Below, one piece after another: positions 1,355 through 64,000 of a stretch of DNA of 64,000 nt (position 1 is the first letter of the stretch; each line of letters begins with the position of its first letter). The notes below the pieces were generated by a model that saw only the letters and a program-made list of their open reading frames with translations, searched no databases and was not told where the DNA came from. A program made the position numbers and the translations under genes. The stretch is from an uncultured delta proteobacterium (GTDB taxonomy: Bacteria; Myxococcota_A; Polyangia; Fen-1088), in contig CAWCMR010000008.1 in NCBI GenBank assembly GCA_963796685.1, forward strand, positions 320,001 to 384,000, in the 5' to 3' direction.

Positions 1355-1526
1355 GAAGTCCCTCCACGCCCCGCTTGAGTTCGTACAAGCTTACTGCAGA
1401 AATGCACAACCCTTCGCGCGGTATCAGATCGTCCAGCCAGTTGACGAGTGATGGGTGTCTGGCCCTCGCGTGACGATCCAGGTACCAGGACACCACGCTG
1501 GTGTCGACCAAGAAGCCTGCGCTCAT
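1350..1526 (-). pseudogene. PIN-domain (VapC-like) toxin, N-terminal fragment
   Basis: MSAGFLVDTSVVSWYL...LCISAVSLYELKRG has the PIN DT motif and the conserved Glu. It breaks off where the ACR3 fragment ends. ATGA overlap with the upstream ORF. Confidence 0.7.
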
Positions 1527-2200
1527 CGCAGCTCGCGCAGACGCGCCTGAACCAGAACCGTCACATCCTCGGGCGCCAACGCTGCCCTCGCCTCCTCCAC
1601 ACATTCCAAAACGCGAGAGCCGCGGTTGACGGACGGAGCATCTGCCTCAAGCTCGACGGAAAGGCCGAGTCGTGCCAGATGATCCACGCCACGAGAAGCT
1701 TCCAGAAATGCGCGGTCCGCCAATTCGGCAGCGCGTTCCTTGTCTCCGTCGCGCTCGGAGAGAGAGACTGCGGCCATGAGGAGAACGACGGCCCGAATCA
1801 CTCCGGCCGCGTCGTCCTTGAATGCCTCGGCCAGATCCGGCTGCGCTAGCAGGCCGGGGTCCAGACTCGCTTCTTGGATCTCGGAACCAAACGGTATCGC
1901 CTCAAGAAAACCCACGAACGCTCGCATCGCCCAGCGAGCCGAACGGCGGGCGCCTGGGTCCGGCAGGAATCGGTCGAGACGCTCGCCCTCGGAGTGATAG
2001 ATGCCCTTGAGCTCTGCCAGAAAGCCCGGTGCCCCAAGCCCCTGAATGATCACGGTGAGCGCCTTGCCGAACTGGGTGAAGATGGCCAACGTGGTCTCGT
2101 TTACCAAATGCGTGTTGAGCGGCTCTTCTCGAAGGCGTTTCAGTTCCGCCTCGATCACCGCTGGCGCCCATGCAAGCGCGGCCCTCTCGGCGGGCGCCAA
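1523..2200 (-). CDS. Hypothetical protein translationally coupled to the PIN gene (possible antitoxin)
   Basis: 225-aa ORF with plausible composition; its stop overlaps the PIN start. Confidence 0.55.
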   Translation of the reverse strand: MAPAERAALAWAPAVIEAELKRLREEPLNTHLVNETTLAIFTQFGKALTVIIQGLGAPGFLAELKGIYHSEGERLDRFLPDPGARRSARWAMRAFVGFLEAIPFGSEIQEASLDPGLLAQPDLAEAFKDDAAGVIRAVVLLMAAVSLSERDGDKERAAELADRAFLEASRGVDHLARLGLSVELEADAPSVNRGSRVLECVEEARAALAPEDVTVLVQARLRELR

Positions 2201-2556
2201 CTGCCCACCAACGCGGTTAGATCTCGCACTGACAGTGGGGGAAGCCCCATCGCCAGGTTGTCGATTTTCGCCTTGGCTGCCGCAGTCATGGTGTTTGCTC
2301 CGTTCGCAGCATTGTACCTAGCAAGAGGCCAGAATACGCGCCTTAGTGACCACGGTCTTGCCTAGGCCTGGGACGGGTCGTCCTGGATTACCGACGAGCG
2401 CAACGCGCACCGCGCCATTGACCATCCCTCGAAGAGACTCGGTCTGGATCCTTGGCGCGCCAGTTTGAGTCATCTGGTGACGCGATCCTCAACGCGAATC
2501 CTAAGTCTCGACGAACATAGCAAAATCAATAGTAAAATTAACTAGTTACAGCCGAC

Positions 2557-2628
2557 AGGGAGCAAAAAGAAAGGGTTACCCACGCCGCTGCATCCCCCCT
2601 CGATTTCACAAAGGAATTTGGGGTAACT
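2557..2628. repeat. ~70-bp dispersed repeat copy 1 bounded by GTTACCC...GGGTAAC (putative recombination site)
   Basis: Shares gttacccacgccgctgcatc exactly and cgatttyacaaagga...ggggtaact with 5624-5690. Confidence 0.75.
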
Positions 2629-2724
2629 CAGCCTCTGGCGTAGCGAATCTGTGCCTAATTCAGTCTCTATACGATACAGTTTTAAGACTTGAATTCAGAC
2701 CTGTATGCGCCCATCATTTCGAGC

Positions 2725-3012
2725 ATGCGGGCCATCAAAGTTGCCGAAGACATCGTCCCGGTAGGTGAGTTCAAAGGCCAAGCAGCGCGCTGGCTCCGGC
2801 ATGCCGCTGAAACCGGACAGCCCGTGGTCATCACCCAGAATGGCAAGCCGGCTGGCGTCCTGGTCTCGCCGACCGAGTACGACCGTCTGACCGAGCGGGA
2901 ACGGTTCCTGGAGTCGGTCGCGCTAGGGCTGGCGGATGCCGAAGCCGGTCGAACCATGGACACAAAAGAGCTTCTGCGCCGTCTTGAAGAACAGCGGTCC
3001 GCGGGGCGGTAG
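2725..3012 (+). CDS. Phd/YefM-family antitoxin
   Basis: DIVPVGEFKGQA...PVVITQNGKPAGVLVSPTEY is the Phd/YefM motif; ATG at 2725 preferred over the longer ORF start. Confidence 0.9.
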   Translation: MRAIKVAEDIVPVGEFKGQAARWLRHAAETGQPVVITQNGKPAGVLVSPTEYDRLTERERFLESVALGLADAEAGRTMDTKELLRRLEEQRSAGR

Positions 3013-3014
3013 CA

Positions 3015-3311
3015 TTGAAAGTCATCTGGACTGAACAGGCGCTCGTGCGCCTCGCCGAGATCCAAGACTTCATCGCCCGGGCCAACCCCGACGCGGCCGA
3101 ACGTCTTGTCCACCGAATTGTCGAGCGCGGTGATGGATTGTCGAAGTTCCCCGAGATGGGCAGGATTGTGCCCGAGCTTCCAGGAACCGGCATTCGCGAA
3201 ATCATCGAGGGACGTTACAGGATCGTCTATCGGGTCCAGACGAAGGCGATCCAGGTTCTCACGGTCTTCGAAGGGCATCGCCAGTTTCCTTCGGGGGATA
3301 TCGTCGGATAG
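3015..3311 (+). CDS. RelE/ParE-family toxin
   Basis: KVIWTEQA..RLAEIQDFIA..NP.AA...FPEMGRIVPE...REII...YRIVYR; directly downstream of the antitoxin. Confidence 0.9.
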   Translation: MKVIWTEQALVRLAEIQDFIARANPDAAERLVHRIVERGDGLSKFPEMGRIVPELPGTGIREIIEGRYRIVYRVQTKAIQVLTVFEGHRQFPSGDIVG

Positions 3312-3803
3312 TCACCAGTTTTGCCTTTCAAGCAGGCGCGCTGTCTTTCCAGACGCCGCTTTGGAGACGGACTGGCAAACGCGCGGAGGTTCCATCGCGC
3401 CTTGCGTGATCGCTTCTTGTCGTCAAGTCGAGCGATCCCGATGACCTTTGCGAAAAAACTGCCGCGCTCAGCCAGATCGGCGGCCCGCGCCTGTCCAAAG
3501 TTGTCTCCACTCGACCGTTTCAACCAGGAGATGGGGCAAGGCGAGATCGATGAGCGTAGATTCAACCCAAGGGACCTCGACCTCGTATCCAGCCACCCAA
3601 TTCAGGCGTCCCCTCGCAGCGGCGAGGATCTCGTCAAGGTCGCGTCCAATCTCGCATGCTCCGAGCAGGAGCCCGCGCTTATGCTCTCAGAATGTCCCAC
3701 GTTAACGACTTTGTGGTCGCTGCCCGCTTTGCTCACCGCACTGATAGGGACCGATCCCCCGGTGTCGCCCTACCCCGCCCTGAGCTAATCGCCATTGCCA
3801 GGG

Positions 3804-4430
3804 TCATGGATCGCCCCGCGGCAAGAGAACCAATTTGGCGGCTTCCTCAGCCTCTTTGAGGAGCGTCTTGCGCGGCGTGCCTAGCAGCGCACGCATGGTC
3901 AGCCCACGCACCAAATCCGTGACTTGGATTGCGCGCGCGGCTACGGGAAAGTCAGATGGGATTTCTCCCGCGCTGATCCCGTCCCGGAAGCGGCGCTCCA
4001 CCAGCGCCGTTCCGCCCGCGACCGCGCTCTGCAGGAACCGCTGAACCTCGGCGTCGTTCACAAGCGGCGCGACGCATATCATAAGGCAGCCCCGAGCGGA
4101 CCCTTTCTCTGTCGCACTTTCGACGGCGTACCTAAGAAAGCTCGCGATCGAGTCGCGAAGACTTTGTGGCGAGAGGAGTGCCTTCGCGGCTGATGCGCCC
4201 TTTCTCTCTGCATACGCCTTGAGGGCGCGCAAGAATATCGCCCGCTTGTCCCCGAAGACGGCATACAGGCTCGGCCGTCCCACCCCCATCCCGGCGACGA
4301 GATCGTCAATCGTCACTCCGTCGTAGCCTTTCGACCAGAACACCTGAGTCGCCTTTTCCAGCGCCCCCGTCTCGTCGAAGCTGCGTGGTCGACCCCGCGG
4401 CCTAGCGGTATTTTGAATCATTTGGTTCAA
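3804..4430 (-). CDS. TetR/AcrR-family transcriptional regulator
   Basis: RGRPRSFD...FWSKGYDGVTIDDLVAGMGVGRPSLYAVFGDK helix-turn-helix; GCLM motif in the C-terminal domain. Confidence 0.92.
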   Translation of the reverse strand: MNQMIQNTARPRGRPRSFDETGALEKATQVFWSKGYDGVTIDDLVAGMGVGRPSLYAVFGDKRAIFLRALKAYAERKGASAAKALLSPQSLRDSIASFLRYAVESATEKGSARGCLMICVAPLVNDAEVQRFLQSAVAGGTALVERRFRDGISAGEIPSDFPVAARAIQVTDLVRGLTMRALLGTPRKTLLKEAEEAAKLVLLPRGDP

Positions 4431-4535
4431 AACTCATTGACAGTTTCTCGCACCAATATATAACTGAATAGTTCTAAATTAGCAAGCCGGTTACTGGCCT
4501 CGCGGGGCCTCACGACTCGGCTTTCACCCTTCACC

Positions 4536-5522
4536 ATGGAGACGGTTATGGAACATTCGATCGCTCTCGTCACCGGCGCCACTTCCGGGCTCGGCCATGC
4601 GGCAGCCCGCCTGCTCGCCGGAGAGGGCTGGCACGAGATCATCGTCACCGGGCGCACCCTGGCCGGGGCCCAGCAAGCGGCCGCTCAACTCGCGGCTGAG
4701 AACAAAACAGTGATCTTCACGCCGCTGGAGTTGGATCTGGACAAGCCGTCCAGCGTTCAGTTCGCCGTTGCCGAGTTGGTCAAGCGAGGTCGGCCGGTCG
4801 AGTTCCTACTGCTCAATGCAGGGATGGTCCCAGGTAAGAAGCGCGTGATCACCGCAGCGGGCATCGAGGAAGCTCAGGCCCCGCTGATCGGCCATCATCA
4901 ACTGACTATCGGGTTGCTCCGCGCCAACCTGCTGAGCCCGAACGCGCGGATTGTCATCGCCGGCGCGGAACCTGCCCGTGGGGGCGTGCCGATGTTCAGA
5001 TACACCGATGTGCCAGCCTTCGCGGCCAAATACTTCCGGGGAGACCGGACCGCGGCTATCGAAGCCCTGATTCGCAACGGGCCAAACGTGAAGTACGTGC
5101 CCAACAATACGTATGCCGACGCGAAGCTCATTATCGCTTGGTGGGTCGCGGCGCTGGCGCGCCGGCTACCCTCCGGCATGGCCGTGTACGCTGTCTCGCC
5201 CGGTGGGGCGACCGCCACCAAGGTGGTGCGAAACGCTGGCCCGTTGTTGAAGTATCTGTTTATCCCAATCGTGAACCTCATTCCCGGCATGAATCAGACG
5301 CCGGAGACCGCGACCCGTCGGTACCTCCAGGCGTCGGAGCTCGGAACCGACGTCTCAGGGCAATTCTTCGCCTCGGCTAAAGGGAAGTTCTCAGGCCCAA
5401 TTGAGGTGCAGCGCCAGCCACACCTCTACGATCGCGCCAGCCAGGAAGCCGCGTGGCAGGCCGTCGTCAAGGTCTCTGGCGTCGACTTCTCCTCCGCAGC
5501 AACCTTGAGCGCCGTGTCCTGA
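4536..5522 (+). CDS. Short-chain dehydrogenase/reductase
   Basis: TGATSGLG Rossmann motif, LNAG and YADAK (YxxxK); divergent from the TetR gene. Confidence 0.9.
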   Translation: METVMEHSIALVTGATSGLGHAAARLLAGEGWHEIIVTGRTLAGAQQAAAQLAAENKTVIFTPLELDLDKPSSVQFAVAELVKRGRPVEFLLLNAGMVPGKKRVITAAGIEEAQAPLIGHHQLTIGLLRANLLSPNARIVIAGAEPARGGVPMFRYTDVPAFAAKYFRGDRTAAIEALIRNGPNVKYVPNNTYADAKLIIAWWVAALARRLPSGMAVYAVSPGGATATKVVRNAGPLLKYLFIPIVNLIPGMNQTPETATRRYLQASELGTDVSGQFFASAKGKFSGPIEVQRQPHLYDRASQEAAWQAVVKVSGVDFSSAATLSAVS

Positions 5523-5623
5523 AGGAGCGCGCCCCCTGCCCGCCCAGGCGGTCACTCGTCGCACGCACGGATGCGCTCATGTTCTTGATCGGCTTCGTGG
5601 TCATGTCGTCAGCGCTTCCAGGT

Positions 5624-5690
5624 AGGGAGCAGAAAAAAGTTACCCACGCCGCTGCATCGCTGCGATTTTACAAAGGATTTGGGGGTAACT
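5624..5690. repeat. ~70-bp dispersed repeat copy 2 bounded by AGTTACCC...GGGTAACT
   Basis: Direct-orientation homolog of 2557-2628 with a perfect 8-bp internal inverted repeat. Confidence 0.75.
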
Positions 5691-5729
5691 GCGGGCCTTC
5701 AGAAGCGTTCTTTCATTGTTTTCCATAGA

Positions 5730-5817
5730 TTCAGCATCTGCTGAAAATGTCATCTTTAGTGAAATGTCCTTGACACCGCAGTTTCACTAGATAGAACGTT
5801 TTCAGCGTCTGCTGAAA
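5730..5817 (+). promoter_or_regulatory. Putative promoter with two palindromic operators for the AbiE-like operon
   Basis: TTCAGCatctGCTGAA (5730-5745) and TTCAGCgtctGCTGAA (5801-5816) flank TTGACA (5770-5775). Confidence 0.6.
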
Positions 5818-5829
5818 GTTAGTGATGCC

Positions 5830-6876
5830 GTGAAAGCACAGGACATAGAGAGACGAGCCGCTGCGGCACTCACGGCGTGTCTGCAGGAAGCACCCTTCAT
5901 CCGGGTCAAGTCCGCGCGGTGGCGTCGACGCGATGATGAGGCAGACATCGTGCTCAACCTTCGGACCAAGGCCGGTTCGTTCAGCCTAATCGCCGAGGTC
6001 AAGACCACAGGCCAACCCCGCGTGGCAAGAGAAGCGGTCAACCATCTGCTGTGCCTCCGCCGCGAACACCCGGACGCCTACGGCGTGTTCGTGGCCCCGT
6101 ATGTGTCCCCGGAAGCCGCCGAGATCTGCAGGAAGCACGACATCGGGTATCTCGACCTTGCCGGGAACTGCCGCCTGTCTTTTGACCAGGTCTTCATCTC
6201 CAGGGAGGGCTTCCGCAACAAATTCACGCAGAGGCGGGATCTCCGATCGCTGTACGCGCCGAAGGCCACGCGGGTGCTTCGTGCGCTGCTGATGAGCAAG
6301 TCCAAGTGGTGGAAGACCCAGGTGTTGGCCGACGAGGCGGGGGTGAGCATTGGGCAGGTCGCCAACGTGAAGAAGAACCTGCGTGACCGGGAGTGGGTTG
6401 TCGATGGGAAGGAAGGTTTTCGTCTTGCGAATCCCCAGGCCCTGCTCCGGGAATGGGCGGACAACTACACGTATCGGAAGAACACCGTTCGTGACTTCTA
6501 CGCCATGGGCGAGACCGACGATGTCGAGGCCGCTATCGCAAGGGAATGCCGTGAGCTTGGGATTGAATATGCGTTCACCGGTTTCTCGGCGGCGCGCCGG
6601 ATCGCCCCTGCGGTCCGAGGACAACGCGCCATGGCCTACGTGAGCGTGGTCTCCGAGGCCCTGCTGAAGCGGGCAGGGTTGAAGGAGGTGTCGAGCGGCG
6701 CGAACGTCAGCCTCCTGGTCCCTTACGACGAGGGTGTCTACTACCTGGCCAACGATGTCGACTCGATGAGGACTGTGTGTCCTGTCCAACTCTACCTCGA
6801 CCTCAAGGGCTACAAAGGCCGTGGCGATGAAGCGGCCGAGGCCGTCTGGCAGCAGGAGGTCTCGAAGCTGTGGTGA
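5830..6876 (+). CDS. Type IV TA (AbiEi-like) antitoxin / transcriptional regulator
   Basis: Central HTH, LLREWA..Y, YAFTGFSAA, GANV.LLVPYD.GVYY and PVQLYLDL....GRGDEAAE, typical of AbiEi-2-type proteins paired with nucleotidyltransferases. Confidence 0.75.
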   Translation: MKAQDIERRAAAALTACLQEAPFIRVKSARWRRRDDEADIVLNLRTKAGSFSLIAEVKTTGQPRVAREAVNHLLCLRREHPDAYGVFVAPYVSPEAAEICRKHDIGYLDLAGNCRLSFDQVFISREGFRNKFTQRRDLRSLYAPKATRVLRALLMSKSKWWKTQVLADEAGVSIGQVANVKKNLRDREWVVDGKEGFRLANPQALLREWADNYTYRKNTVRDFYAMGETDDVEAAIARECRELGIEYAFTGFSAARRIAPAVRGQRAMAYVSVVSEALLKRAGLKEVSSGANVSLLVPYDEGVYYLANDVDSMRTVCPVQLYLDLKGYKGRGDEAAEAVWQQEVSKLW

Positions 6877-57844: not shown

Positions 57845-59086
57845 ATGGAACACACTGCTCACCGGGTATCCTCATTGTCGGCACTGGGTCTGTTTGCCGG
57901 CTTGCTCCTCATGAGCCCAGCGGTCCTGGCTGGCGACGTGACCCTTTCGGTCCTCGGGTTGGAGCCCGCGGCGGGTGCGCCCGAGGCGGTTGCGACCGCG
58001 GTGACGGAAGCCCTGCGACAGCGCGTGGCCGGGGCGCCCGGCTATCGACTGGTCCCGGGCAAGGATCTGGTCGAGGTGAAGCTCGTGTTCAGCTGCGCCG
58101 ACGAGGCGCCGGCCTGCATGACCCAGGCAGCGCAGAGTATCGGCTCGGCCAAGATCATCTTTGGCAACGTGCAGCCGGTAGGCACGGACGCCTATCTGGT
58201 CACGCTCAAGCTTCTCGACGCCGCGCGCGGCGTGGTCGAGTCGTGGACGTCCGAGCAAATCACCAAGGCACAGGCGACGCCCATAGGGCTGCGGGCGCCG
58301 GTGCAAAAGTGGTTCGCCGCGCTCACCGGACAGGCTCAGCCAGGGACGATCAAGGTGGTGGGCGGCGTGATCGGCGGGTCGGTTTGGCTCGATGGAGCGC
58401 AGGCAGGTCTGCTCGGCACCGACGGCCTGACCTTGGCCGGCGTCGGCGCCGGACCGCACCAAATCACCGTCAGCAAGAGCGGCTACGAGAAGTGGGAACG
58501 GACCGTGAACCTGGCCTCGGGCGCGACCGAAAAGGTGCAGGTGCAGCTCAAGGCCATCGAGGGAGCCACGGGCGCGTCGCCCGCAGCCGAGGTCGTGGCC
58601 GCCCCCGCCGCCCCCGTCGAGAGCGAGCCCGTGGCCACGGTCGAACCCTTCAACCAGGGCTCGCGCATCGGCGCCTGGGCGACCATGGGTCTGGGGCTCG
58701 TCGCCGTGGGCCTGGGTGGCTATTCGAGCTACAAGGTGACCAGCATCAACAGCAATCTCGACAAATTTCGCCGCTATCCGTGCGCAAGTGGCGGCGCCCC
58801 GAACTGCGCGGCGGACGGCAAGACCGGCCTGCAGCCGTTGGACCAGATACCGGGAGCCACCGAGTACGTGAGCAGCCAGAAAAGCACGGGCGATACCTAC
58901 ACCAAGCTGCAGTGGGTGGGTTACGGCGTGGGCGGCGCACTGCTGGTTACCTCGGGCGTGCTCATCTATCGTGGCTATTTCGCCCAGCCGACAACCGTGG
59001 CCTCGCGCAAGAGCCGCAGCACCTTCGTCGTGCTCCCTGCCGTCGCGCCGGGCAACATCGGTGCCCTCGCGTACGTGTCATTTTGA
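57845..59086 (+). CDS. PEGA-domain secreted/membrane protein
   Basis: Signal peptide, PEGA (GSVWLDG...GPHQITVSKSGY) and C-terminal hydrophobic segments; the stop TGA lies inside repeat unit 1. Confidence 0.85.
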   Translation: MEHTAHRVSSLSALGLFAGLLLMSPAVLAGDVTLSVLGLEPAAGAPEAVATAVTEALRQRVAGAPGYRLVPGKDLVEVKLVFSCADEAPACMTQAAQSIGSAKIIFGNVQPVGTDAYLVTLKLLDAARGVVESWTSEQITKAQATPIGLRAPVQKWFAALTGQAQPGTIKVVGGVIGGSVWLDGAQAGLLGTDGLTLAGVGAGPHQITVSKSGYEKWERTVNLASGATEKVQVQLKAIEGATGASPAAEVVAAPAAPVESEPVATVEPFNQGSRIGAWATMGLGLVAVGLGGYSSYKVTSINSNLDKFRRYPCASGGAPNCAADGKTGLQPLDQIPGATEYVSSQKSTGDTYTKLQWVGYGVGGALLVTSGVLIYRGYFAQPTTVASRKSRSTFVVLPAVAPGNIGALAYVSF

Positions 59087-59443
59087 AAAGGACCCTCGGA
59101 GGGTCCTTTAAATCCCCCGCGAAGAGCTCCGTCGGGCTTAGCCCGACTGCGCTCACGCGTTTTGAAAAGAACCCTCGGAGGGTCCTTTAAATCCCCCGCG
59201 AAGAGCTCCGTCGGGCTTAGCCCGACTGCGCTCACGCGTTTTGAAAAGAACCCTCGGAGGGTCCTTTAGATCCCCCGCGAAGAGCCTCCGTCGGGCTTAG
59301 CCCGACTGCGCTCACGCGTTTTGAAAAGAACCCTCGGAGGGTCCTTTAGATCCCCCGCGAAGAGCTCCGTCGGGCTTAGCCCGACTGCGCTCACGCGTTT
59401 TGAAAAGAACCCTCGGAGGGTCCTTTAGATCCCCCGCGAAGAG

Positions 59444-61518
59444 GTCGAGTAGCCAGGGGAGGTTACCCTCCCCCAGCTCTCACAGAACCGGACTTGTGGG
59501 CCTCACATCCGGCTCTTCGGGACGCTGGCGTTCGGGAGCGACCCGTAGTCCAGCGCCGGCATTGCTGCCCGCAGCTATCCTGGCTCCAGGGCCGGGTCCA
59601 TGAAGTCCAAGGCGTGATGGTCCTTCCACCGCTCGGCCAGGCTGACAAGCCCGCGTTCGGCAAAATATGCGTTGCGCAGTCCTCGTTCAACTACCGATGT
59701 GTGGCTCAGCGCCCACCAGGAGCGATGCCCCTTGTAGACCCCTTGCCACGCGGTTTTCGGTCTCACCCCCAGGCTGATGAGGTGTCGTGCGATGAAGCGT
59801 CTGCGTTTCCAGTGCCGTAGCACTATCGCTCGCAGCCGCCGCCTGATGTGTGCGTCGAGTGCCTGCAGCGTCCGCTCTTCCGCGGCCGTGCAGATACAGA
59901 AGAAGCCGATCCATCCGAGCAAATACGCGTTGACCTGTTTGATGCAGCCCTTGAGGGACTGCCCAAGGTTTCGCGGCGTCAGCTCTCGGACCTTCTCGTC
60001 AATGCGGCTTTTGCTCCGCGCCGACAGCAGCACCTCCGCTTCCCCCGTCAGCGGCTCGCGCCGCAGCCGGAATCCCAGAAAGTGCCGCTCTTCCGGTCGG
60101 GCCACCGCGCTCTTGGCCAAGTTCACCTTCAACCGCATCCGGCCTTCGATGAACTTGACCACGCTGGCCATCACACGCTGACCCGAGCGCTCGCTTCCGA
60201 CGTAGATGTTGCAGTCGTCCGCATAGCGCACGAAGCGGTGACCGCGTTGGGCAAGCTCGCGGTCGAGCTCGTCCAGCACGATATTGCTCAGTAACGGCGA
60301 AAGCGGACCACCTTGTGGCACTCCTTCTTCCGTCGCCACCACCACTCCGTCGGGCATCACCACCTTGGCTTTCAGCATCTGCCAGATGAGCTCGATGAGC
60401 CGCCGGTCCTTAACCCTCTGTTCTAGCCGCGCCACCAGCCGTTGCCAGTGGACCCGGTCAAAGAACTTTTCCAGGTCGAGGTCGACCACCCATTCGTACC
60501 CTTCCTCCAGATACTGCTTGGCCTCGGCGATGGCCGTGTGACAGCTGCGCCCAGGTCGGAAACCGTGGCTCGACGGGTGAAACGTCGGCTCATAATGCGG
60601 ACCGAGCACTTGGTGCACGGCCTGCTGAACCACGCGGTCCACCACGTTCGGTATGCCAAGGCCCCGCCGCCCGCCACCGCTCTTCGGTATCCATACCCGC
60701 CGGATGTCTCCGACTCGGTATGTCCCGTCGAGCAGCGACCGCGACAGCGCCGGTATCAGCGTCCCCAACCCCTTCGCCACTTCCCCCACGCTTTGCCGGT
60801 CCGGTCCAGGTGCGCCTTTGTTGGCCTTCACTTGCTCGAACGCTCTTTTCAGGTTTCCTTCGCTCGCTACCTCCTCCATCGTCATGGGCGGCAAGGTCCT
60901 CTCTTCCTCGTTCCCCGACTTCGGCACCTCGCTCCGCGCAGGCACGGGTTGGCCCGGATCCGCTTGGGCGGTGGTCCCTTTCGGGTTGTCGGCTGTCTCG
61001 GGAAACAGTCCGAGCTGCCTTGCCTCTTTGCTGGCCGTGGTCGCCTTCCCTCCCCGCCTTCTGGCGGTTGGAACCGGCTTTCGCCGGCCTTCCGGTATTA
61101 CGCGACCATCCGACTCCTCTTGTCCCTTCTTCATCTCGTCCTTTCGTTCTCGATGAATTCCGCTTGCGATTCCTCGCCGCGGAGGCCAAGAGGTCTCTCC
61201 GGGTAAGAACGCAGAACTTCGCACCGACTCCGTCGCCACTACGCGGGCCGCCCGACGAATATTGGGCTTTGCCGCCGAAGGCCAGCTTGCCCAGCGGTAC
61301 CCACGCCTTACGGCGCTTCACTTTCGTTCGGTTCGGCGCTGCACCATAGACTTCCACCAGACACCTCCTCGCGGGAGACGGGCCTTGCGGCCCGTCTGGC
61401 CTGGTGCTCCAGACCGGCGCCCTTGTCTCGTAGGTGGGAGGTTCCCTCCGTCAGGGTCCCCAGAGGACTTGGCTATTTCATGGCTTCACCTCTTGTTCTG
61501 CGTCCATGCCGGACGCAC
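59444..61518 (-). mobile_element. Group II intron, class C-like, copy 1 (2075 bp)
   Basis: 5' GTGCGTCCGGCATGGACGCAG; domain V GAGCCGGATGTGAGGCCCACAAGTCCGGTTC; domain VI with bulged A at -7 and terminal AC. Removal restores the repeat unit exactly. Confidence 0.96.
59575..60885 (-). CDS. ltrA: Group II intron reverse transcriptase/maturase (no endonuclease domain)
   Basis: NKGAPGPD, RRVWIPK, LGIPNVVDR, SHGFRPGRS, DLDLEKFFD, GVPQGGPLSPLLSN, RYADD and domain X. The open frame extends to 61239, but that part overlaps ribozyme domains. Confidence 0.96.
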   Translation of the reverse strand: MTMEEVASEGNLKRAFEQVKANKGAPGPDRQSVGEVAKGLGTLIPALSRSLLDGTYRVGDIRRVWIPKSGGGRRGLGIPNVVDRVVQQAVHQVLGPHYEPTFHPSSHGFRPGRSCHTAIAEAKQYLEEGYEWVVDLDLEKFFDRVHWQRLVARLEQRVKDRRLIELIWQMLKAKVVMPDGVVVATEEGVPQGGPLSPLLSNIVLDELDRELAQRGHRFVRYADDCNIYVGSERSGQRVMASVVKFIEGRMRLKVNLAKSAVARPEERHFLGFRLRREPLTGEAEVLLSARSKSRIDEKVRELTPRNLGQSLKGCIKQVNAYLLGWIGFFCICTAAEERTLQALDAHIRRRLRAIVLRHWKRRRFIARHLISLGVRPKTAWQGVYKGHRSWWALSHTSVVERGLRNAYFAERGLVSLAERWKDHHALDFMDPALEPG

Positions 61519-61597
61519 CTCCGTCGGGCTTAGCCCGACTGCGCTCACGCGTTTTGAAAAGAACCCTCGGAGGGTCCTTTAAATCCCCCGCGAAGAG

Positions 61598-63672
61598 GTC
61601 GAGTAGCCAGGGGAGGTTACCCTCCCCCAGCTCTCACAGAACCGGACTTGTGGGCCTCACATCCGGCTCTTCGGGACGCTGGCGTTCGGGAGCGACCCGT
61701 AGTCCAGCGCCGGCATTGCTGCCCGCAGCTATCCTGGCTCCAGGGCCGGGTCCATGAAGTCCAAGGCGTGATGGTCCTTCCACCGCTCGGCCAGGCTGAC
61801 AAGCCCGCGTTCGGCAAAATATGCGTTGCGCAGTCCTCGTTCAACTACCGATGTGTGGCTCAGCGCCCACCAGGAGCGATGCCCCTTGTAGACCCCTTGC
61901 CACGCGGTTTTCGGTCTCACCCCCAGGCTGATGAGGTGTCGTGCGATGAAGCGTCTGCGTTTCCAGTGCCGTAGCACTATCGCTCGCAGCCGCCGCCTGA
62001 TGTGTGCGTCGAGTGCCTGCAGCGTCCGCTCTTCCGCGGCCGTGCAGATACAGAAGAAGCCGATCCATCCGAGCAAATACGCGTTGACCTGTTTGATGCA
62101 GCCCTTGAGGGACTGCCCAAGGTTTCGCGGCGTCAGCTCTCGGACCTTCTCGTCAATGCGGCTTTTGCTCCGCGCCGACAGCAGCACCTCCGCTTCCCCC
62201 GTCAGCGGCTCGCGCCGCAGCCGGAATCCCAGAAAGTGCCGCTCTTCCGGTCGGGCCACCGCGCTCTTGGCCAAGTTCACCTTCAACCGCATCCGGCCTT
62301 CGATGAACTTGACCACGCTGGCCATCACACGCTGACCCGAGCGCTCGCTTCCGACGTAGATGTTGCAGTCGTCCGCATAGCGCACGAAGCGGTGACCGCG
62401 TTGGGCAAGCTCGCGGTCGAGCTCGTCCAGCACGATATTGCTCAGTAACGGCGAAAGCGGACCACCTTGTGGCACTCCTTCTTCCGTCGCCACCACCACT
62501 CCGTCGGGCATCACCACCTTGGCTTTCAGCATCTGCCAGATGAGCTCGATGAGCCGCCGGTCCTTAACCCTCTGTTCTAGCCGCGCCACCAGCCGTTGCC
62601 AGTGGACCCGGTCAAAGAACTTTTCCAGGTCGAGGTCGACCACCCATTCGTACCCTTCCTCCAGATACTGCTTGGCCTCGGCGATGGCCGTGTGACAGCT
62701 GCGCCCAGGTCGGAAACCGTGGCTCGACGGGTGAAACGTCGGCTCATAATGCGGACCGAGCACTTGGTGCACGGCCTGCTGAACCACGCGGTCCACCACG
62801 TTCGGTATGCCAAGGCCCCGCCGCCCGCCACCGCTCTTCGGTATCCATACCCGCCGGATGTCTCCGACTCGGTATGTCCCGTCGAGCAGCGACCGCGACA
62901 GCGCCGGTATCAGCGTCCCCAACCCCTTCGCCACTTCCCCCACGCTTTGCCGGTCCGGTCCAGGTGCGCCTTTGTTGGCCTTCACTTGCTCGAACGCTCT
63001 TTTCAGGTTTCCTTCGCTCGCTACCTCCTCCATCGTCATGGGCGGCAAGGTCCTCTCTTCCTCGTTCCCCGACTTCGGCACCTCGCTCCGCGCAGGCACG
63101 GGTTGGCCCGGATCCGCTTGGGCGGTGGTCCCTTTCGGGTTGTCGGCTGTCTCGGGAAACAGTCCGAGCTGCCTTGCCTCTTTGCTGGCCGTGGTCGCCT
63201 TCCCTCCCCGCCTTCTGGCGGTTGGAACCGGCTTTCGCCGGCCTTCCGGTATTACGCGACCATCCGACTCCTCTTGTCCCTTCTTCATCTCGTCCTTTCG
63301 TTCTCGATGAATTCCGCTTGCGATTCCTCGCCGCGGAGGCCAAGAGGTCTCTCCGGGTAAGAACGCAGAACTTCGCACCGACTCCGTCGCCACTACGCGG
63401 GCCGCCCGACGAATATTGGGCTTTGCCGCCGAAGGCCAGCTTGCCCAGCGGTACCCACGCCTTACGGCGCTTCACTTTCGTTCGGTTCGGCGCTGCACCA
63501 TAGACTTCCACCAGACACCTCCTCGCGGGAGACGGGCCTTGCGGCCCGTCTGGCCTGGTGCTCCAGACCGGCGCCCTTGTCTCGTAGGTGGGAGGTTCCC
63601 TCCGTCAGGGTCCCCAGAGGACTTGGCTATTTCATGGCTTCACCTCTTGTTCTGCGTCCATGCCGGACGCAC
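61598..63672 (-). mobile_element. Group II intron, class C-like, copy 2 (2075 bp, apparently identical)
   Basis: Same termini and identical ORF translations at an offset of 2154 bp (2075+79). Confidence 0.96.
61729..63039 (-). CDS. ltrA: Group II intron reverse transcriptase/maturase, copy 2
   Basis: Identical translation to copy 1; the open frame extends to 63393. Confidence 0.96.
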   Translation of the reverse strand: MTMEEVASEGNLKRAFEQVKANKGAPGPDRQSVGEVAKGLGTLIPALSRSLLDGTYRVGDIRRVWIPKSGGGRRGLGIPNVVDRVVQQAVHQVLGPHYEPTFHPSSHGFRPGRSCHTAIAEAKQYLEEGYEWVVDLDLEKFFDRVHWQRLVARLEQRVKDRRLIELIWQMLKAKVVMPDGVVVATEEGVPQGGPLSPLLSNIVLDELDRELAQRGHRFVRYADDCNIYVGSERSGQRVMASVVKFIEGRMRLKVNLAKSAVARPEERHFLGFRLRREPLTGEAEVLLSARSKSRIDEKVRELTPRNLGQSLKGCIKQVNAYLLGWIGFFCICTAAEERTLQALDAHIRRRLRAIVLRHWKRRRFIARHLISLGVRPKTAWQGVYKGHRSWWALSHTSVVERGLRNAYFAERGLVSLAERWKDHHALDFMDPALEPG

Positions 63673-63912
63673 CTCCGTCGGGCTTAGCCCGACTGCGCTC
63701 ACGCGTTTTGAAAAGAACCCTCGGAGGGTCCTTTAAATCCCCCGCGAAGAGCTCCGTCGGGCTTAGCCCGACTGCGCTCACGCGTTTTGAAAAGAACCCT
63801 CGGAGGGTCCTTTAAATCCCCCGCGAAGAGCTTCCGTCGGGCTTAGCCCGACTGCGCCCACGCGTTTTGAAAAGAACCCTCGGAGGGTCCTTTAGATCCG
63901 GGGTCCTTTGGG

Positions 63913-64000
63913 TCACCGCTTCATGAGGATGCGAACGAGCACGGTCGCCAAGATGCCCCACGCAACGGTGGCGATGGGCCAGTAGGGCGCGGCCCGGCGG
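63913..64000 (-). CDS. 3' end of a membrane-protein gene converging on the array (partial)
   Basis: Minus frame ...RAAPYWPIATVAWGILATVLVRILMKR* with the stop at 63913-63915. Confidence 0.55.
   Translation of the reverse strand, partial: RRAAPYWPIATVAWGILATVLVRILMKR

Follow-up and report, generated by a model that had tools for sequence, protein, structure and literature searches.

The subject of this analysis is a 64,000-nt stretch of DNA (hereafter the window) from contig CAWCMR010000008.1 of assembly GCA_963796685.1, which belongs to an uncultured delta proteobacterium of the Polyangia, and more precisely a tandem array of 79-bp units near its end, two neighbouring units of which are each interrupted by a group II intron of 2075 nt. 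With good confidence, we interpret these introns as two copies of a recently proliferated class C (IIC) intron, which follows a target rule made of a DNA hairpin and a short intron-binding site (IBS1), and for which the array is an incidental rather than a specialised target.

Eleven full-length copies of the intron, 99.8-100% identical and varying at seven alignment columns, were retrieved from the genome containing the window (G000, a 26-contig bin of 7.3 Mb, 88.6% complete), together with one 141-nt 3' fragment. Nine of the eleven lie outside the window array, behind five other GC-rich hairpin contexts. At an identity of at least 99% the intron was found only in this genome, the sole near-full-length relative among 40 relatives (G037) reaching 78%. 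A previous reading of the window based on its letters only (the sequence-only reading) had proposed an intron lineage specialised on a tandem repeat resembling the repetitive extragenic palindromes (REP). This proposal is not sustained by the nine copies located elsewhere, nor by related introns found after unrelated hairpins or ordinary terminators, which is the pattern that the same reading had named as contrary to it.

Target rule and repeat background

The ten copies with a 5' flank, the remaining one (position 2 of contig C11) lying at a contig end, are all preceded by a GC-rich hairpin of 6-9 bp at a distance of 0-4 nt, apart from one copy placed 10 nt from the inner stem, and in none of the ten is a T-run found behind the hairpin. 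Their 5' exons end in GGAG (four copies), GAAG (two), AGAG, ATAG, GAGG and TAGG, and their 3' exons begin with C in six cases, A in two and T in none, the copy at the contig end having T. A CUUC in a terminal loop of domain I (alignment columns 301-304) pairs with GGAG, GAAG and GAGG, and the homologous positions covary, in four lineages, with the 3-4 nt that close the 5' exon: CUUC with GRAG in the intron of the window, GUC with GAC in G037, CUC with GAG in a metagenome-assembled genome (MAG) of Gemmatimonadales and CAUC with GAUG or GGUG in a MAG of Planctomycetota. Because these positions change together with the 5' exon ends, the loop is proposed as exon-binding site 1 (EBS1). The covariation count leaves out L094 (in G009), a 5' fragment of 200 nt that lacks a clear GUGYG. 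Upstream of the hairpin, the six site families have nothing in common in their 5' exons, and we therefore infer no EBS2.

A strict version of the site, defined as a perfect 6-bp stem (4 or more GC pairs) closing a 3-6 nt loop, then a spacer of 0-4 nt and GRRG, is satisfied at 1.0% of the GRRG positions genome-wide and in two of the four GRRG-ending site families (P = 6e-4), and it recovers only four of the ten occupied sites. The flanked copies represent six kinds of site, namely the window array and three repeat families, with two copies each, and two single sites. Three pairs of copies with a common flank family differ within the intron, which indicates separate insertions into like repeats. 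Tabulating the flanks across the genome placed all ten within sequence that recurs there, with 1 to about 120 related empty sites each, and revealed no preference beyond the hairpin and IBS1. Landing in repeats is indeed expected, since 486 of the 824 non-coding-like sites with a hairpin and GRRG (59%, under a crude mask based on GC content at third codon positions, GC3) are in sequence present at least three times. The chance of at least five of the six site families falling in repeats is P = 0.22, and a preference for repeats as such was rejected as unproven on these figures.

The repeats at issue form a superfamily of ~80-bp units with two hairpins each, of the types GGGAACCCT...AGGGTTCCC and GCCGGGC-AAA-GCCCGGC, for which 392 nhmmer hits in the genome resolve into 234 non-overlapping units, many of them solo. 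Tandem arrays with a period of 79-84 bp number 17, and intron-free ones reach 11 units. Two of the copies outside the window array sit in solo units of this superfamily, and six of the ten flanked copies are outside it. Among 199 units with an aligned second hairpin, the site formed by the hairpin and GRAG^C (^ marking the insertion bond) is empty in 61 and occupied in two, which are the window pair, while for a second site of the superfamily, 10 nt past the stem, 64 units are empty and two are occupied. The repeat unit was found in 11 of 12 genomes of the same genus and in three other genera of the family, and in none of the 16 genomes of other families that were searched. In the sister species G002, the orthologous spacer (L119, G002:C17:287434-290665, 1504-1763) holds exactly three units, compared with nine in the window genome, and no intron. 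These units read GGAA^CTCTTC where the window genome has the IBS1 GGAG. The array therefore predates the intron. As to the term "REP-like" used in the sequence-only reading, it is appropriate for the shape of the 79-bp unit, which is short, intergenic, hairpin-forming and multi-copy as are REP and REPIN elements, and does not extend to a cognate RAYT: the Y1 transposase family (PF01797) had no match in this 88.6%-complete genome, the same search being positive in 6 of 14 control genomes.

Related introns were found after unrelated hairpins in G037 and in MAGs of Gemmatimonadales, Planctomycetota and Bdellovibrionota, and after classical terminators with a T-run in Heyndrickxia and Anoxybacillus. 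Flanks were tabulated for a few relatives (L093, L014, L094, L016-L019, L015, L043 and L053), the search with the intron-encoded protein (IEP) having given 80 related loci; for their 5' ends, nhmmer gave 15 hits with the first 340 nt of the intron (103 related loci) and 13 with its last 150 nt. The Planctomycetota MAG displays three related IIC copies (54% amino-acid identity) within 6 kb (L019, OZ245006.1:6350380-6356320), two of them in tandem at positions 1524-3556 and 3829-5861 of the locus and the third, on the minus strand and ending at 1286, head to head with this pair. The tandem pair has a period of 2305 and differs at 2 of 2033 nt in the introns, versus 6 of 182 in the 5' flanks (Fisher P = 7e-6). 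The greater divergence of the flanks points to separate insertions into neighbouring repeat units. Each of the L019 copies follows a long-range hairpin of a repeated element, the stem of which has compensating changes between copies, and their 5' end is UUGCG. Another observation comes from a run of an independent wetland metagenome (X2): past a loose end at window position 61597, the 3' end of a near-identical intron continues into another 3' exon, which resembles a solo superfamily unit cut 4 nt past the hairpin, the 5' side not being in view.

In this interpretation, the element is a retroelement composed of a compact ribozyme and a reverse transcriptase (RT)/maturase devoid of an endonuclease domain, and, as other IIC introns do, it would read no long homing site. 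Recognition would bear on a DNA stem-loop and then on the 3-4 nt of IBS1 (GRAG), pairing with the EBS1 CUUC, with a single IBS3 base next to it, mostly C. Reverse splicing into that bond would follow, presumably in single-stranded DNA at the replication fork, as suggested by what is known of the family. In a host genome rich in hairpin-bearing intergenic repeats, every unit of the array would be a potential site, so that the array would be an incidental target and not a specialised one. The adjacent copies would result from a local event, either retrohoming a second time, into the neighbouring unit, or duplication of 2154 bp.

Intron class and organisation of the locus

The IEP was read as a frame of 519 aa from ATG, in favour of which a 554-aa frame from GTG was set aside. 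In the 554-aa frame, Pfam identified RVT_1 (5.6e-43, residues 184-392) and GIIM (2.7e-15, residues 412-481), corresponding to RT and maturase (X) domains; in the 519-aa protein, YADD is intact at residue 304. No HNH or other endonuclease domain was detected by Pfam, and the protein stops about 40 residues past the maturase domain. Searches against PDB and for homologues, whose query began at 61137 and thus included one additional N-terminal residue, placed the RT of GsI-IIC first (6ar1, 5e-110, 372 bits), the alignment covering residues 4-415 of its 428 and residues 87-505 of the query. It was followed by 7uim (3.5e-87, 297 bits), 5hhj (5e-70, 240 bits) and 5hhl (3.4e-69, 237 bits), all three of which we take to be IIC proteins, and at a distance by LtrA (9.9e-38, 133 bits) and the 6me0 maturase (4.7e-23, 85 bits). 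The nearest relatives in cultured organisms include Geobacillus, Anoxybacillus and Bacillus, with 45-47% amino-acid identity. The basic N-terminal extension of the IEP, about 85 aa long (residues 1-85; 60880-61134, minus strand), is probably disordered, and part of it is common to relatives from other phyla, with matches beginning at query residues 1-30 at several loci.

As scored through the Rfam models (Table 1), the RNA has the domains I-VI, the GUGYG start and the bulged branch A of a compact IIC-type ribozyme. The intron starts with GUGCG, and no more than 384 nt of ribozyme stand before the open reading frame (ORF). The end of the RF00029 model coincides with the last intron base, and a bulged A in the stretch of domains V and VI lies seven nt from the 3' end. 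For comparison, RF02001 scores 144-146 bits on introns of Bacillales (Heyndrickxia and Anoxybacillus) whose IEPs have 45-46% amino-acid identity. Judged from PDB scores, protein domains and Rfam matches rather than from a tree of reference classes, the window introns are group II introns of class C. The sequence-only reading had also recognised class C introns lacking an endonuclease, in agreement with the top match to the GsI-IIC RT, the presence of RVT_1 and GIIM only, and the two Rfam models.

The two window introns differ at 0 of 2075 positions and are each placed 4 nt past a 7-bp hairpin, at the identical bond of neighbouring units. On the intron strand, both 5' exons end in GTCGGGC-TAA-GCCCGAC-GGAG and both 3' exons begin with CTCTTC, the 48-nt 5' exon in the spacer having a predicted DNA fold of -11.3 kcal/mol. 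Excision of both introns in silico gives eight full units (79, 79, 80, 79, 79, 79, 79 and 80 nt) and a partial ninth. As intact units are restored, the insertions occurred without target duplication, the occupied units are 5 and 6, and six full units are empty. The two units of 80 nt (3 and 8) have one additional base within the GAGCTC that spans the insertion bond. Every unit contains a second hairpin followed by TTTT (intron strand), which is not used by the intron. A perfect match of 2169 nt at period 2154 links 59429-61597 to 61583-63751. The description of the locus in the sequence-only reading is confirmed by these data: two identical introns in units 5 and 6, one common bond without target duplication and with six full units empty, a 7-bp hairpin 4 nt before the insertion with neither a T-run right behind it nor a visible attC core in the unit, and the caveat that the pair is also a perfect 2154-bp tandem duplication.

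Table 1. Coordinates of the features at the locus (window positions) and of example arrays elsewhere in the genome
Feature	Coordinates	Strand	Details
PEGA-domain protein gene	57845-59086	+	ends within unit 1, converges on the array; Pfam PEGA 4.7e-08; GC3 0.84
79-bp tandem array, units 1-4 and first 46 nt of unit 5	59081-59443		TRF period 79, 4.6 copies, 98% matches
Group IIC intron copy 1, 2075 nt	59444-61518	-	5' end GUGCG at 61518, 3' end CUCGAC at 59444
Domains V and VI, copy 1	59444-59517	-	RF00029, 46.6 bits (gathering score 40)
IEP, copy 1	59575-61134	-	519 aa from ATG at 61134
Domain I to IV core, copy 1	61208-61378	-	RF02001 (group-II-D1D4-3), 79.7 bits (gathering score 32)
Proposed EBS1 5'-CUUC-3', copy 1	61277-61280	-	intron positions 239-242, domain I terminal loop
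79-nt spacer	61519-61597	-	one array unit, serving copy 2 as 3' exon and copy 1 as 5' exon
Target hairpin in spacer (copy 1)	61523-61539	-	DNA fold; IBS1 GGAG at 61519-61522
Group IIC intron copy 2, 2075 nt	61598-63672	-	
Domains V and VI, copy 2	61598-61671	-	RF00029
IEP frame, copy 2	61729-63288	-	
Domain I to IV core, copy 2	63362-63532	-	RF02001
Proposed EBS1, copy 2	63431-63434	-	
Target hairpin (copy 2)	63677-63693	-	IBS1 GGAG at 63673-63676
Array remainder: last 33 nt of unit 6, units 7, 8 and partial 9	63673-63899		TRF 2.9 copies, 97%
Conserved 123-aa ORF, 3' end	63913-64000	-	runs past the window to C8:384284; GC3 0.78
Example superfamily arrays in the genome	C6:15671-16555; C25:2111416-2112072; C25:1799238-1799674; C13:272733-273068; C15:358152-358641		

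The array sits between convergent genes whose orthologs in G002 have 88% (PEGA gene) and 93% (123-aa ORF) amino-acid identity; a Pfam search with the 123-aa ORF gave no match. Both introns are downstream of the 123-aa ORF and in sense to it, two to three array units separating them from its stop codon. This sense position past TTTT-bearing hairpins is in keeping with where IIC introns usually reside, behind terminators and at low expression. A simple terminator scan of 58800-64000 returned no site. The taxa of the clusters nearest to a flanking protein offer a lead, and no more, that the host is probably within Myxococcota.

Further observations were made on the assembly. A second close pair of copies (C25:481403-485921) consists of introns 368 bp apart on the same strand, at two different site types and differing at four alignment columns, with a spacer pieced together from repeat units and an empty GAAG^CC site within it. 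The 141-nt 3' fragment (C25:1550098-1550238) has 88% identity and no 5' part, and is separated by 4.6 kb from a full-length copy (C25:1543397-1545471). Two palindromes, GAGCTC and CAGCTG, repeatedly carry a single inserted base, in units 3 (near 59285) and 8 (near 63795) of the window and in four of the 11 intron copies, where two different bases are inserted (intron alignment columns 975 and 1133). These insertions look like a systematic long-read error at methylated sites; if they are real, four of the 11 RT frames are broken. Contig C9 (6306-130906) contains many 99% identical copies of an IS91-family element (501-aa frame with Y2_Tnp and Zn_Tnp_IS91), amid which two CRISPR-like arrays of 33 and 69 repeats are found (C9:89584-100538), a third of 72 repeats being present at C5:381453-386740.

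Alternative readings and origin of the pair

Several points weigh against a hairpin-guided, recently proliferated intron as the explanation of the copies. Its splicing and mobility are putative, and in four of the 11 copies the RT frame has gained 1 nt at one CAGCTG, be it a true frameshift or a read error. The proposal of EBS1 depends on a MAFFT alignment and on covariation in four lineages, no EBS3 could be placed in the intron, and two GGAG^A sites as well as the ATAG site pair poorly under the proposed EBS1/EBS3 rule. The usual terminator habit, meaning a T-run hairpin and a sense orientation to the upstream gene, is not displayed: no T-run follows the ten hairpins, and, by a crude gene call with the GC3 mask, only six of the ten copies share their strand with the closest host frame upstream. 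This mask, which defines what is called non-coding above, attributes 86% of the genome to coding sequence and replaced an earlier, stricter one that attributed 52%. At the locus itself, both window copies equal the consensus of all 11 copies, and their number depends on the assembly, none of the public contigs that cover 61150-61950 (in four of 20 runs: X1, X2, X3 and X6) bridging the 79-bp spacer; all of them stop at the intron ends, at 61519-61521 and 61597. Concerning the terminators, they are a usual trait of IIC targets and not a defining one, as the excerpt of PMC1702495 allows for "other inverted repeats".

The converse view, in which the 79-bp tandem repeat is a dedicated and renewable landing pad for an intron lineage specialised on it, would account for the two copies sharing the same bond in one array, and would also be in line with the two further copies in solo superfamily units and with the location of all ten flanked copies in recurring sequence. 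We nevertheless regard it as highly improbable given the nine copies outside the array and the six flanked ones outside the superfamily, the 61 equivalent sites left empty for two occupied, the 59% of repeats among non-coding sites with a hairpin and GRRG (P = 0.22), the unrelated hairpins and classical terminators used by relatives, and the repeat family in 11 of 12 genomes of the genus without this intron. As regards the way in which the pair arose within the preferred interpretation of an incidental target, the identity of the two copies is uninformative, since both equal the consensus, and it was rejected as evidence of duplication. We lean to a second retrohoming into the next unit, a second insertion of either kind being in our estimation slightly better than an even bet. 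A single insertion followed by tandem duplication of the 2154 bp comprising unit and intron, through unequal crossing-over or replication slippage, appears possible but rather unlikely. The perfect 2169-nt match at period 2154 would be its direct product, and recombination at the level of units does occur, with unit numbers varying from three in G002 to nine here and up to 11 elsewhere in the genome. However, a variant between units (G at 59428, A at 61582) would leave a duplication only 15 of 79 possible positions for its junction, those from the variant to the intron, a limit that does not apply under insertion and that amounts to a likelihood ratio of only about 5, and the related Planctomycetota pair looks like separate insertions.

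An assembly artefact, in which the long-read assembler wrote one intron-bearing unit twice, seems improbable. The bin is fragmented (26 contigs) and incomplete, a contig breaks at the intron copy of C11, the indels at GAGCTC and CAGCTG suggest uncorrected long-read errors, and no public contig bridges the spacer. Against this, ten other copies were resolved within contigs, including the close pair 368 bp apart on C25, and three other direct repeats of at least 800 bp at small offsets, listed in a self-comparison (1249, 1418 and 2130 bp; C2 and C25), are only 99.3-99.8% identical, which implies that a spurious perfect duplication is not habitual in this assembly. More doubtful still is the idea that the intron amplifies its own landing pad, the array then offering, at -79, -158 and further steps of one unit, a ladder of 5' splice sites with the same stem-loop and IBS1. 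Splicing from the -79 site would excise one unit with the intron, that is 79 + 2075 = 2154 nt, equal to the observed period, and if this 2154-nt RNA then retrohomed into the neighbouring unit, the array would gain a further intron together with a further target unit. A precedent is given in the excerpt of PMC1702495, according to which B.h.I1 can use cryptic stem-loop/IBS1 sites upstream, at -76 and -72, for splicing in vitro. The sequence is compatible with this ladder, and equally so with plain homing or recombination, and arrays can expand in the absence of the intron, as is shown by those that lack it and reach 11 units. Were it true, it would represent a retroelement-driven route to the growth of tandem repeats.

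Relation to known systems

A literature search, thin on subscription journals, returned no description of a IIC intron in adjacent units of a tandem array, nor of a genome with every intron copy in a hairpin repeat. The window pair is a known type of intron in a neat local arrangement and not a new mechanism. The notion of a neutral, multi-copy landing pad is not new either, because of the precedent of RmInt1, an intron of class D that homes into the copies of ISRm2011-2 in Sinorhizobium meliloti, a multi-copy and dispensable target; RmInt1 reads a long specific homing site inside the insertion sequence and not a hairpin with 4 nt. The present case illustrates hairpin-seeking IIC introns in a GC-rich genome in which intergenic hairpins are mostly repeats and not T-run terminators: the rule of a stem-loop plus 4 nt is kept and EBS1 is simply retuned. 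It provides a natural series of EBS1/IBS1 covariation across four phyla-level hosts, and the 11 occupied and more than 100 empty sites could serve to calibrate the target rules of IIC introns. With the tandem array, the use of upstream stem-loop/IBS1 motifs as alternative 5' splice sites, published as an in-vitro oddity, could also be examined in a natural setting. It finally highlights that, for an intron seated in its "own" repeat, a genome-wide list of copies is needed before specialisation is claimed.

The closest likeness is with B.h.I1 of Bacillus halodurans and GsI-IIC of Geobacillus stearothermophilus, through the IEP clade (the GsI-IIC RT being the best solved relative), the absence of an endonuclease domain, the compact domain I (RF02001), the insertion right after a stem-loop, a 3-4 bp IBS1-EBS1 pairing complemented by IBS3, the intergenic location and the many near-identical copies. 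The window intron differs from them by a stem-loop without T-run, an IBS1 of GRAG rather than a U-rich one, target hairpins that nearly all come from repeat families, and an IEP with the N-terminal extension of about 85 aa (chain residue 4 of the GsI-IIC RT aligning to query residue 87). Compared with the attC-associated introns, whose target core motif is GTTRRRY, the 79-bp unit has no visible core of this kind and the locus no integron context, no search for an integrase having been made. The nearest relatives, as judged from the IEP searches, are not known to be attC introns. The likeness to these IIC-attC introns (S.ma.I2 lineage) is that of a non-terminator, imperfect inverted repeat present many times in an array-like structure (excerpt of PMC4424553, which also reports IIC introns at attC sites). 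The traits of the family are set out in the same source and in PMC1702495, where insertion is described after terminator motifs "or other inverted repeats".

Bacterial group II introns at repetitive extragenic palindromes are documented in Pseudomonas putida KT2440, where two of nine copies of an intron are REP-associated (Tobes & Pareja 2006, excerpt of PMC1525189), in contrast to the present genome, in which all ten flanked copies are in repeats, the repeats include tandem arrays, two adjacent units are occupied and no RAYT was found. Lastly, the IIB1 intron EcKTE56.groEL is another example of two copies of one group II intron at a single locus, described in the excerpt of PMC12584367 as head-to-tail copies obtained by successive retrohoming. 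Its second copy directly abuts the first, through a U:G wobble between EBS3 and the first intron base, whereas the window copies, which belong to another intron class, each have their own 79-bp target unit.

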